Source of the DNA: Escherichia coli
GTDB lineage: Bacteria; Pseudomonadota; Gammaproteobacteria; Enterobacterales; Enterobacteriaceae
Strand: one strand, 5' to 3'
NCBI RefSeq assembly: GCF_016026235.1
Contig: NZ_CP065613.1
Length of the DNA stretch: 64,000 bases
In this document: in pieces, positions 2,786 to 46,892 of the stretch
Layout: each line of letters begins with the position of its first letter
Numbering within the stretch: the first letter of the stretch is position 1
Position numbers and translations under genes: made by a program
The notes under the pieces: model-generated
What the model saw: the letters and a program-made list of their open reading frames with translations, nothing else
The model's database searches: none
Told to the model about the DNA's origin: nothing

Positions 2786-4585
2786 ATGACGACACAGGTC
2801 CCACCTTCCGCGTTGCTTCCGTTGAACCCGGAGCAACTGGCACGCCTTCAGGCGGCCACGACCGATTTAACTCCCACCCAGCTTGCCTGGGTTTCTGGCT
2901 ATTTCTGGGGCGTGCTCAATCAGCAGCCTGCTGCGCTTGCAGCAACGCCAGCGCCAGCCGCAGAAATGCCGGGTATAACTATTATCTCCGCCTCGCAAAC
3001 CGGCAATGCGCGCCGGGTTGCTGAAGCATTACGTGATGATTTATTAGCGGCAAAACTGAACGTTAAGCTGGTGAACGCGGGCGACTATAAATTCAAACAA
3101 ATCGCCAGCGAAAAACTGCTTATCGTGGTGACGTCAACGCAAGGAGAAGGGGAACCGCCGGAAGAAGCCGTCGCGCTGCATAAGTTCCTGTTCTCCAAAA
3201 AAGCGCCGAAGCTGCAAAACACCGCATTTGCCGTGTTTAGCCTCGGCGATAGCTCTTATGAATTTTTCTGCCAGTCCGGGAAAGATTTTGACAGCAAGCT
3301 GGCGGAACTGGGCGGTGAACGCCTGCTCGACCGTGTCGATGCCGACGTTGAATACCAGACCGCTGCCAGCGAGTGGCGCGCTCGCGTGGTTGATGCGCTT
3401 AAATCGCGTGCGCCTGTCGCGGCACCTTCGCAATCCGTCGCTACTGGCGCGGTAAATGAAATCCACACCAGCCCGTACAGCAAAGACTCGCCGCTGGTGG
3501 CGAGCCTCTCTGTTAACCAGAAAATTACCGGGCGTAACTCTGAAAAAGACGTTCGCCATATCGAAATTGACTTAGGTGACTCGGGCCTGCGTTACCAGCC
3601 GGGTGACGCGCTGGGCGTCTGGTATCAGAACGATCCGGCACTGGTGAAAGAACTTGTCGAACTGCTGTGGCTGAAAGGCGATGAACCTGTCACCGTCGAG
3701 GGCAAAACGTTGCCTCTGAACGAAGCGCTACAGTGGCACTTCGAACTGACCGTCAACACCGCCAATATTGTTGAGAACTATGCCACGCTTACCCGCAGCG
3801 AAACGCTGTTGCCGCTGGTGGGCGATAAAGCGAAGTTACAGCATTACGCCGCGACTACGCCGATTGTCGATATGGTGCGCTTCTCTCCGGCGCAACTGGA
3901 CGCCGAAGCGCTGATTAATCTGCTGCGCCCGCTGACGCCGCGTCTCTATTCCATCGCCTCCTCGCAGGCGGAAGTCGAGAACGAAGTACACGTCACCGTT
4001 GGTGTGGTGCGTTACGACGTGGAAGGCCGCGCCCGTGCCGGTGGTGCCTCCAGCTTCCTCGCGGACCGCGTGGAAGAAGAGGGCGAAGTTCGCGTATTTA
4101 TCGAACATAACGATAACTTCCGCCTGCCCGCTAACCCGGAAACCCCGGTGATTATGATTGGCCCAGGCACCGGCATCGCGCCGTTCCGCGCCTTTATGCA
4201 GCAGCGCGCCGCTGACGAAGCGCCGGGTAAAAACTGGCTGTTCTTTGGCAACCCGCATTTTACGGAAGATTTCCTCTACCAGGTGGAGTGGCAGCGCTAC
4301 GTCAAAGAGGGCGTGCTGACACGTATCGATCTCGCCTGGTCGCGCGATCAAAAAGAAAAAGTTTACGTACAAGACAAACTGCGCGAACAGGGCGCGGAGC
4401 TGTGGCGCTGGATCAATGACGGTGCCCACATTTATGTCTGCGGCGACGCTAATCGCATGGCGAAAGACGTTGAGCAGGCACTTCTGGAAGTGATTGCCGA
4501 ATTTGGTGGCATGGACACCGAAGCGGCGGATGAATTTTTAAGTGAGCTGCGCGTAGAGCGCCGTTATCAGCGAGATGTCTACTAA
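2786..4585 (+). CDS. cysJ: Sulfite reductase [NADPH] flavoprotein alpha subunit
   Basis: 599-aa ORF, flavodoxin plus FAD/NADPH reductase domains, first gene of cysJIH. Confidence 0.95.
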
Positions 4586-30632: not shown

Positions 30633-31028
<396 letters not shown>

Positions 31029-44380: not shown

Positions 44381-45241
<861 letters not shown>

Positions 45242-45387
45242 TCAATATTCCTTTTCAACTGACTCAAAATGGAGAAATACACTCCGCCGCCTTATGACGG
45301 GCAGTCTGACAAGGGTAAACAATAAAGCATAATTTTGCCAAATAGATCACAGATTTCTCATCTGAATCACCTTGCTTTTGGCGAAAA

Positions 45388-45406
45388 AATCCCCGCAGAG
45401 CGGGGC
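45388..45406 (-). terminator. Hairpin plus T-run on the minus strand upstream of mscS
   Basis: CCCCGCTCTGCGGGG followed by TTTTTTCGCC. Confidence 0.5.
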
Positions 45407-45436
45407 TCAGACAGATATCAATGTGCGCTTTGTCAT

Positions 45437-45535
45437 GCCGGATGCGGCGTGAACGCCTTATCCGGCCTACAAAAACCTGCAAATTCAATATATTGCAGGA
45501 TACGTGTAGGCCTGATAAGCGTAGCGCATCAGGCA
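45437..45535. repeat. BIME: two REP units flanking a central palindrome
   Basis: GCCGGATGCGGCGTGAACGCCTTATCCGGCCTAC ... CCTGCAAATTCAATATATTGCAGG ... GTAGGCCTGATAAGCGTAGCGCATCAGGCA. Confidence 0.8.
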
Positions 45536-45554
45536 ATTTTGCTTTTGGCGAAAA

Positions 45555-45575
45555 AAAGACCCGCAGAGCGGGCCT
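45555..45575 (-). terminator. Rho-independent terminator of fbaA
   Basis: GGCCCGCTCTGCGGGTC followed by TTTTTTT on the minus strand, just after the fbaA stop. Confidence 0.75.
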
Positions 45576-45598
45576 TGAGATAAGCAGAAAGGAATATC

Positions 45599-46678
45599 TT
45601 ACAGAACGTCGATCGCGTTCAGTTCCTGGAATGCTTTTTCCAGACGAGCGATCATCGAAGTCTGACCGGCACGCAGCCATACGCGCGGATCGTAGTATTT
45701 CTTGTTCGGCTGATCTTCGCCTTTCGGGTTACCCAGCTGACCCTGCAGATAAGCTTCGTTCGCTTTGTAGTAGTTCAGAACGCCTTCCCAGGTTGCCCAT
45801 TGGGTATCGGTATCGATGTTCATTTTTACTACGCCGTAGCTTACGGAGTCTTTGATTTCCTGAGCAGTAGAACCGGAACCACCGTGGAATACGAAGTTCA
45901 GGCTGTTGTGCGGCAGGTTGTGTTTCTTGGAAACATATTCCTGAGAATCACGCAGGATGGTCGGAGTCAGAACCACGTTACCCGGCTTGTAAACACCGTG
46001 TACGTTACCGAAGGACGCTGCGATGGTGAAACGCGGGCTGATTTTGCTCAGTTCGGTGTATGCGTAATCAACGTCTTCCGGCTGGGTGTACAGTGCAGAA
46101 GCGTCCATGTGGCTGTTGTCCACGCCGTCTTCTTCACCACCGGTGCAACCCAGTTCGATTTCCAGAGTCATGCCGATTTTGGACATACGCTCCAGGTATT
46201 TAGAGCAGATTTCGATGTTCTCTTGCAGAGATTCTTCAGACAGGTCGATCATGTGAGAAGAGAACAGCGGCTTACCGGTAGCTGCGAAGTGTTTTTCACC
46301 CGCGTCCAGCAGACCGTCGATCCACGGCAGCAGTTTCTTCGCGCAGTGGTCAGTGTGCAGGATAACCGGAACACCATAATGTTCAGCCATCTGGTGAACG
46401 TGATGCGCACCAGAGATCGCGCCCAGGATAGCAGCACCCTGCGGAACGTCAGATTTCACGCCTTTACCAGCGATAAAGGAAGCACCACCGTTGGAGAACT
46501 GAACGATAACCGGCGCTTTAACTTTAGCAGCAGTTTCCAGTACGGCGTTGATGGAGTCAGTACCGACGCAGTTTACTGCTGGCAGTGCGAAGTTGTTTTC
46601 TTTTGCTACCTGGAAAACTTTCTGTACGTCATCACCAGTGATTACGCCAGGTTTTACGAAATCAAAAATCTTAGACAT
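45599..46678 (-). CDS. fbaA: Fructose-bisphosphate aldolase class II
   Basis: 359 aa from MSKIFDFVKPGVITGDDVQKVFQ... Confidence 0.95.
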   Translation of the reverse strand: MSKIFDFVKPGVITGDDVQKVFQVAKENNFALPAVNCVGTDSINAVLETAAKVKAPVIVQFSNGGASFIAGKGVKSDVPQGAAILGAISGAHHVHQMAEHYGVPVILHTDHCAKKLLPWIDGLLDAGEKHFAATGKPLFSSHMIDLSEESLQENIEICSKYLERMSKIGMTLEIELGCTGGEEDGVDNSHMDASALYTQPEDVDYAYTELSKISPRFTIAASFGNVHGVYKPGNVVLTPTILRDSQEYVSKKHNLPHNSLNFVFHGGSGSTAQEIKDSVSYGVVKMNIDTDTQWATWEGVLNYYKANEAYLQGQLGNPKGEDQPNKKYYDPRVWLRAGQTSMIARLEKAFQELNAIDVL

Positions 46679-46892
46679 GTCTCTTGTCCTGTATCGTCGG
46701 GCCTTATACTCATCATACTTCAAGTTGCATGTGCTGCGTCTGCGTTCGCTCACCCCAGTCACTTACTTATGTAAGCTCCTGGGGATTCACTCTCTTGTCG
46801 CCTTCCTGCAACTCGAATTATTTAGAGTATGAAAAAATGCGTGCTCTGAAAGCGCGCTGAAACAAGGGCAGGTTTCCCTGCCCTGTGATTTT

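Follow-up and report, generated by a model that had tools for sequence, protein, structure and literature searches.

Why does the spacer downstream of fbaA carry two similar transcription terminators, one on each side of a repetitive element, and where did the second one come from? The question is raised by a 64,000-nt stretch of Escherichia coli DNA (assembly GCF_016026235.1, contig NZ_CP065613.1, read on one strand and referred to below as the window), in which mscS (44381–45241, assigned from the RefSeq annotation of matching DNA) and fbaA (45599–46678, class II fructose-bisphosphate aldolase, translation MSKIFDFV...NAIDVL*, supported by the RefSeq annotation of identical DNA) are both encoded on the minus strand and are separated by a spacer of 357 nt, lying between the start of mscS at 45241 and the stop codon of fbaA at 45599–45601.

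Anatomy of the fbaA-mscS spacer

The preliminary description of this DNA had reported near-duplicate hairpin motifs on each side of a REP-palindrome-REP unit, and this arrangement is indeed present, at coordinates (45375–45578) that proved accurate within 3 nt. The repeat search identified TTGCTTTTGGCGAAAAAA as an exact 18-nt match at 45372–45389 and 45539–45556 (spacing 167–168), followed by 24 nt (45384–45407 and 45552–45575) that are 88% identical and include CCCGCAGAGCGGG in both copies. On the plus strand the order of parts is copy A, left arm, inverted y REP, linker, z1 REP, arm remnant and copy B. Copy A, the mscS-proximal terminator paralogue (45372–45407, minus strand), comprises a hairpin at 45391–45405 and a U-tract at 45384–45389, and copy B, the fbaA-proximal terminator (45539–45576, minus strand), comprises a hairpin at 45556–45576 and a U-tract (an A-run on the plus strand) at 45551–45557, beyond which lies CGCCAAAAGCAA. 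One terminator copy together with the repetitive element makes up a unit of 167 nt (45372–45538, no strand assigned), of which Escherichia genomes carry 0, 1 or 2 copies. Tandem Repeats Finder reported no array in the window, because the array there amounts to only ~1.2 units; the two-unit allele is detected by the same program.

The element between the two copies, all parts of which were annotated on the plus strand, is a BIME-1. Its left arm (45406–45436, CTCAGACAGATATCAATGTGCGCTTTGTCAT, consensus TCAGATTGTTGACAAAGTGCGCTTTGTTCAT) was delimited by alignment with five other BIME-1 loci, which align from the first base of the query. It is followed by an inverted REP (45437–45470, GCCGGATGCGGCGTGAACGCCTTATCCGGCCTAC), which was found by the inverted-repeat search, is invariant across the six loci and gives sub-threshold matches to naRNA4; by a linker of 35 nt (45471–45505) with the palindrome CCTGCAAATTCAATATATTGCAGG (45476–45499) and an IHF-like site ATTCAATATATTG (45483–45495); by a second REP (45506–45535, GTAGGCCTGATAAGCGTAGCGCATCAGGCA), likewise invariant across the six BIME-1 loci and an inverted repeat of the first; and by a remnant of the right arm (45536–45550, ATTTTGCTTTTGGCG, consensus ATTTTGCGTTTGTCATCAGTCT), recognised from the same alignment and from the listing of junctions. 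We take the two REPs to be of the y and z1 types, respectively, on the basis of the consensus sequences of these types, and both arm consensus sequences were derived in this analysis from the BIME-1 alignment. The left arm is present but diverged, and the right arm is cut short, ending after ATTTTGC at a point that sits in a 13/15 microhomology with the target; the remnant overlaps the start of copy B, and the junction therefore lies within the microhomology.

BIME-1 has been described as a pair of REPs, one y and one z1, inverted relative to each other around an L linker, often with an IHF site, and as a single-copy element (PMC3333891). Such a REP pair was found here at 45437–45470 and 45506–45535, the stretch between them shows the linker pattern AATTCAATA.ATTGCA that is conserved at other BIME-1 loci and identifies it as an L linker, and the palindrome is unique within the window, where the BIME-1 is single-copy. 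The candidate IHF site agrees with the consensus WATCAANNNNTTR at 12 of 13 positions, a match that by itself is not significant (59 such sites found in the window, 48 expected). The linker was also matched by the Rfam family ES036/CssrF (RF02751; 45471–45513, 47.3 bits against a gathering score of 37.6). ES036/CssrF and naRNA4 were considered as evidence for genes and rejected, the matches being to repeated parts of BIMEs; in particular, the ES036 match marks a repeat and not a gene, because the matched stretch is the repeated L linker of BIME-1.

On the mscS side, downstream of both terminators, a block at 45311–45351 (minus strand), composed of TGTGATCTATTTGGCA (45351->45336) and TTGTTTACCCTT (45322->45311), is common to six Enterobacteriaceae spacers with a layout of ~190 nt and is a probable promoter or regulatory region of mscS. 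The scan for sigma-70 promoters identified no convincing mscS promoter, its one plus-strand match (CTGACA-16-CATAAT, 45306–45333) being at chance level. CRP-like half-sites are seen in TGTGATCTATTTGGCA.

The two terminators and RNA 3' ends

The terminator scan revealed, on the minus strand, a hairpin of 9 pairs in copy B (45576->45556) followed by TTTTTCGCCA, and a hairpin of 6 G-C pairs in copy A (45405->45391) followed by ATTTTTTCGC. The computed RNA folds have energies of -14.1 kcal/mol (z -2.8) for copy B and -11.6 kcal/mol (z -1.3) for copy A. In copy B seven U residues come straight after the stem, and in copy A one A precedes six U.

The positions were transferred to MG1655 with an offset of 3,024,566, the window having the same orientation as the K-12 records; the comparison with K-12 that the preliminary description had suggested shows W3110 to be identical across the whole spacer (alignment). 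In the MG1655 Term-seq data of Adams et al. 2021 (supplementary file 1), the 'primary fbaA' 3' end lies at 3070119/3070118 (PMC7815308), with 160,555 reads in LB at OD 0.4 and 120,854 in M63 at 3070119, and 54,607 in LB at OD 2.0 at 3070118 (PMC7815308); a further, 'orphan' 3' end is listed at 3069950 in LB at OD 2.0 only, with 44,902 reads (PMC7815308). The former corresponds to 45553/45552 of the window, within the U-tract of copy B, and was called in all three conditions, and the latter to 45384, the last U of the tract of copy A, called in one condition of the three and lying ~33 nt short of the conserved block on the mscS side. In stationary phase the copy A end is about as abundant as the copy B end, judged from the read counts. 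No coordinate beginning with 30698–30701 occurs in the table of Rho-dependent (bicyclomycin-sensitive) regions from the same study (PMC7815308). The fbaA 3'UTR construct of a ProQ study, given there as the 'terminal 91 nt of the fbaA transcript from +1038', ends at copy B, as computed from the length of the coding sequence.

Both copies thus exhibit the attributes of an intrinsic terminator, i.e. a G+C-rich hairpin, an adjoining U-tract and in vivo 3' ends within that tract. The preliminary description had proposed two minus-strand terminators in series after fbaA, to be examined by 3'-end mapping; the hairpins, the U-tracts and the published ends in both tracts bear it out, the result named as a refutation (transcripts that pass both hairpins unterminated) was not observed, and for the distal copy it is termination as the source of the end that we infer. 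The end at copy A need not stem from termination, because a stable hairpin can also stop 3'->5' exonucleases and the end, classed as 'orphan', was called in one of three conditions. The 'orphan' end at MG1655 3069950 can now be explained as that of a paralogue of the fbaA terminator.

On the other side of fbaA, the spacer between pgk and fbaA (46710–46832) contains the repeat GTGAATCCCCAGGAGCTTACATAAGTAAGTGACTGGGGTGAGCG, which we take to be of the ERIC/IRU type. A match of the Rfam family V_AS5 (40 bits against a gathering score of 96) was rejected as sub-threshold and located on this repeat. The Term-seq table has an 'orphan' end in this spacer as well (MG1655 3071314, ~46748 in the window; three of three conditions), and the pgk end at 3071427 corresponds to 46861.

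Distribution of the unit

Of the 80 loci that the scan with MscS yielded, at one genome per species, four are labelled Escherichia; in 56 loci from other genera both genes could be located, and the 24 loci with no fbaA within the flank were left out. The spacer measures 158–194 nt in 50 of the 56 other-genus Enterobacteriaceae loci (Citrobacter, Klebsiella, Kluyvera, Raoultella, Enterobacter and Kosakonia among them), and all ten such spacers that were read lack a BIME and have one terminator only, placed where copy B lies. In two outgroups, Intestinirhabdus alba (L027, 405 nt) and Entomohabitans teleogrylli (L038, 494 nt), the spacer is enlarged by other inserts, that of I. alba with an ERIC-like core CCCCGGGAGCTTACTGAGGTAAGTGACCGGGG; small repeats therefore seem to have landed repeatedly in the region behind the fbaA terminator.

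Among 5,426 complete E. coli genomes the long form of the spacer is present in 3,725–3,780 (~70%; copy A with the BIME flank in 3780/5423, the remainder having a single 42-nt terminator), and ~1,650 (~30%) have a short form that is smaller by exactly 167 nt, in which the left flank is joined directly to copy B with no BIME. Copy A is absent from the short alleles and from the outgroup spacers. A donor of copy A elsewhere in the genome was considered and rejected: a 71-nt query (copy A with its flank) matched one place per genome, so copy A was not imported from another locus. In O157:H7 strain TR01 (NZ_CP033605.1, 3910198–3910229) only bases 40–71 of this query are matched, which suggests that the copy A site has been rearranged again or has taken up an insert.

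The short alleles occur in the B2-type strains DA33135, SCU-484, Nissle 1917 and the type strain ATCC 11775, in two other Escherichia genomes (L005 and L006), and in at least 31 genomes whose flanks are identical to those of long-allele K-12-like haplotypes at every nearby informative site. For the last group, the K-12-like flanks around the short allele mean that later precise deletion between the repeats is the best explanation, and some short alleles of Escherichia are thus probably secondary deletions, with the proviso that a precise deletion and a never-filled site give identical sequence and that the Escherichia outgroups are mixed. Genomes with more than one unit were also found: E. coli SW070917 possesses two perfect units of 167 nt (100% identical), hence three terminators, and Escherichia sp. 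E1V33 has, independently of SW070917, two units that are 99% alike. The number of units (167–169 nt) at this one locus is therefore 0, 1 or 2, as in a variable-number tandem repeat, and the direct repeats of 18–40 nt account for the recombinational instability of the 167-nt unit that these alleles reflect. E. whittamii has the long form, with a decayed distal hairpin (-6.4 kcal/mol, z +0.6). E. whittamii and E1V33 share the junctions between BIME and target, which indicates one origin, and the additional terminator and the BIME are derived within Escherichia, having probably arisen once. The second terminator is dispensable, being missing in ~30% of E. coli and having decayed in E. whittamii. 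The 0/1/2-copy polymorphism could serve as a lineage marker, and the alleles provide natural, isogenic-like material for determining the effects of the second terminator and of BIME-1 on the fate of fbaA mRNA and on the insulation of mscS.

Two further observations concern the short-allele genomes. In L006 (CP089930.1, labelled E. coli E69) fbaA is 99.1% identical to that of the window and mscS only 88.9%, and there may be a recombination breakpoint in or near the spacer of this divergent Escherichia genome. In DA33135 and SCU-484 (L087 and L088), ~2–4 kb past mscS, the scpA-meaB-scpB-scpC genes survive only as fragments and srsR has become a pseudogene; meaB, scpB and scpC are retained in the window-like strains YJR and O157.

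Duplicated hairpins at other BIME-1 loci

Five further BIME-1 loci were collected from those E. coli genomes whose best match is a copy other than that of fbaA. Their alignment revealed that homology among BIME-1 copies runs past the REPs into the left and right arms, which look, by eye, like imperfect inverted repeats of one another, and at two of the five loci (pitA-uspB and satP-mog) a locus-specific hairpin is present on both sides of the element. Metagenome contigs, scanned for the BIME-1 pattern, yielded 99 usable matches at 31 distinct loci (the scan of viral contigs returned a single locus, left unused), and the left and right flanks of each locus were compared, with mismatched locus pairs as the control. 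Besides fbaA-mscS, six loci reached the 99.8th percentile of the control or more, although cl18, one of these six, is a separate case with its alignment inside the arms; a further five loci exhibit the same geometry of flanking hairpins. In total, at ~11 of the 31 BIME-1 loci a locus-specific G+C-rich hairpin abuts both ends of the element, the outer edges of the two arms marking exactly where the left copy stops and the right copy begins (junctions of bracketed loci were recorded for L090, L091, L099, L106, L110, L111, L112, L119, L134, L136, L148 and L165). In a strict test, confined to the 11 loci with both arm ends recognisable, six of the 11 reached at least the 99th percentile, four exceeded every control, and direct alignment of the flanks beat inverted alignment in most. 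The cl18 case (L133, 1264–1431) consists of two BIME-1 pattern matches 134 nt apart on a single metagenome contig with direct repeats inside the arms, i.e. a tandem or variant arrangement that departs from the description of BIME-1 as single-copy.

Empty and filled sites could be compared directly at two of these loci. Both states of the pitA-uspB spacer occur in E. coli, an empty allele with one hairpin followed by T7, and a filled allele with a hairpin, BIME-1, and again a hairpin followed by T7. The filled allele exceeds the empty one by 173 nt in the records, and its two hairpin ends are 177 nt apart. At ysgA-metE, E. coli lacks the element, and a metagenome contig of 93% identity carries it between two hairpin copies. 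At fbaA-mscS, pitA-uspB and ysgA-metE alike, a direct repeat of the target lies at both ends of the element and a single copy is found at empty sites. The two similar terminators behind fbaA are therefore best read as the footprint of a BIME-1 acquisition, because about a third of the 31 other BIME-1 loci are bracketed by a duplicated hairpin and the empty sites have a single one. The canonical loci duplicate the hairpin alone, so that one copy only keeps a U-tract (e.g. cl21). The fbaA-mscS locus is atypical because its duplication takes in the U-tract; it is the longest observed (~40 nt, including the A/U-run and TTGCTTTTGGCG, against 18–27 nt at canonical loci), and it is owing to the duplicated A/U-run and to the right arm stopping in the microhomology that both copies behind fbaA are complete terminators.

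Bracketing by hairpins may be a general footprint of BIME-1 gain. A more specific proposal, that BIME-1 is acquired beside G+C-rich terminator hairpins with a structure-defined duplication spanning the whole hairpin (18–27 nt; ~40 nt at fbaA), is put forward tentatively, as an idea that may well turn out to be wrong. If true, the footprint would be unlike the duplication-free single-strand transposition expected of a REP-associated Y1 transposase, and it would suggest that strands are cleaved or switched where an extruded hairpin or cruciform has its base. Transposases of the IS200/IS605 type, Y1 enzymes related to the REP-associated TnpA, make no larger duplications (PMC2817692). The proposal would limit, in a concrete and testable way, the models of how BIMEs spread, and it would account for the tandem or orphan terminator hairpins that flank many BIMEs. 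No description of such a hairpin footprint was found in the literature searched on BIME structure, BIME variability, Y1 models and direct repeats, of which the older BIME literature was covered incompletely.

Origin of the second terminator

Combination of these results suggests the following scenario. The ancestral Rho-independent terminator of the epd-pgk-fbaA unit would be copy B, and in the Escherichia lineage ~40–45 bp of target DNA would have been duplicated with, or around, the acquisition of BIME-1. At fbaA the duplication extends over the U-tract and 12 downstream bases, and the right arm is truncated at the microhomology. Staggered cleavage or strand switching at both bases of an extruded hairpin, with homology-assisted extension at fbaA, may have produced this structure. 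As the duplication is longer than the canonical 18–27 nt, either an extra recombination step or a different event would be needed. RNA polymerase leaving the heavily transcribed epd-pgk-fbaA unit would mostly halt at copy B, and read-through RNA would cross the BIME-1 hairpins and end at copy A, presumably by termination. The unit would later have been lost or amplified by recombination or slippage between the direct repeats. We hold with good confidence that the locus consists of the ancestral terminator (copy B), a BIME-1 and a paralogous copy A that came from a local target duplication tied to the gain of BIME-1, the duplication and the gain being perhaps one event.

This origin is compatible with a function, in which the double terminator and BIME-1 would be maintained by selection as a fail-safe insulator that protects the stress-regulated mscS against read-through out of the very strongly transcribed glycolytic operon, as a stabiliser of the fbaA 3' end, or as both. 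RNA 3' ends at both sites and the majority status of the long allele fit this proposal, as does the comparison of the two stems, where the G.U pair of copy B is a C-G pair in copy A and the stem has been kept between the paralogues, the pair having changed on both sides. REPs have been described as mRNA stabilisers and the linkers of BIME-1 as IHF sites (PMC3333891), which would agree with such a role. Against it stand the fixation of the short allele in successful lineages such as B2 (Nissle, ATCC 11775), the renewed loss of the unit in a K-12-like haplotype and the decay of the distal hairpin in E. whittamii, so that an insulating benefit seems doubtful, although conceivable.

Somewhat less probable still is the possibility that copy A is an inert footprint of BIME-1 and that its 3' end results from exonuclease trimming of read-through RNAs or of RNAs started within the spacer. 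Trimming would be consistent with an 'orphan' end that appears only in stationary phase, with the weaker hairpin of copy A (6 pairs, z -1.3), and with its decay in E. whittamii and absence from 30% of E. coli. However, the end coincides exactly with the final U of a tract of six U behind an all-G-C stem of 6 pairs, the classical geometry of intrinsic termination, its read count is close to that of copy B in the same sample, and the two-sided pair change keeps the stem, all of which argues for a working terminator at copy A.

It is improbable that the terminator was first duplicated by slippage and that BIME-1 was inserted between the copies later, in an unrelated event. Such an order of events might predict a duplicated segment that takes in the U-tract and exceeds in length those at other BIME-1 loci, and an element that has lost its right arm, as is observed; but two copies with no BIME between them were seen in none of the alleles examined in E. 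coli and other Enterobacteriaceae (which was not a targeted search), and the similar bracketing of about a third of the other BIME-1 loci, with single hairpins at empty sites, speaks for a duplication that accompanies the element. Finally, that the similarity of the two motifs is due to chance or to an assembly artefact can be dismissed with near certainty, given 18 nt of exact and 24 nt of 88% identity, just two sites in 64 kb for the 14-mer TTTTGGCGAAAAAA with at most one mismatch (0.09 expected), and the recurrence of the structure in >3,700 complete genomes.

The locus as such is already known, being part of the K-12 sequence, with a terminator and a BIME of catalogued types and both 3' ends in a public Term-seq table. 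What the present analysis adds is the paralogy and origin of the two terminators, the polymorphism of 0, 1 or 2 units, and possibly a BIME-1 acquisition footprint that has not been described before; if truly undescribed, this footprint bears on the long-open mechanism of REP/BIME mobility.

Comparison with known systems

Tandem intrinsic terminators, in which the second signal serves as a 'back-up', are known from rrnB T1-T2. The fbaA spacer likewise has two hairpin and U-tract signals in series on the same strand, with 3' ends mapping to both. Unlike T1 and T2, the fbaA pair are paralogues by local duplication around a mobile-type repeat, they lie 168 nt apart with a BIME in between, and the second one is missing in 30% of strains. 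With regard to the fate of the RNA, the fbaA 3'UTR ending at copy B is a reported ProQ ligand and thus resembles other ProQ-bound terminator hairpins, and the placement of REP hairpins directly downstream of copy B recalls the mRNA 3' ends stabilised by REPs (PMC3333891).

The element itself conforms to the BIME-1 type (RIP/RIB elements) in its pair of REPs, its IHF-type L linker and its location at the 3' end of a transcription unit. The fbaA copy is ~92% identical to BIME-1 copies elsewhere and differs from them by the right arm cut off after ATTTTGC and by the diverged left arm. BIME-1 has been described as single-copy, whereas SW070917 and E1V33 repeat the element together with the terminator in tandem. 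In this respect the locus is similar to the tandem copy-number variation described for BIME-2, where the number of units likewise differs between strains at one locus (PMC3333891), and to the ~10% of small variable segments in E. coli that are flanked by direct repeats (PMC2884548); the difference is that at fbaA the recombining repeats are the duplicated terminator and not the REPs, and the unit contains BIME-1. The target-site duplications of MITEs and IS elements provide a further parallel, as there too direct repeats of the target abut an element with inverted-repeat arms and empty sites have a single copy. The BIME-1 repeats were not classified as classical target-site duplications, because their length is not fixed but varies from ~18 to ~40 nt (18–27 nt at canonical loci, ~40 nt at fbaA) and follows the local hairpin: in MITEs and IS elements the duplication reflects a set stagger, and in BIME-1 it tracks the whole hairpin beside which the element lies.
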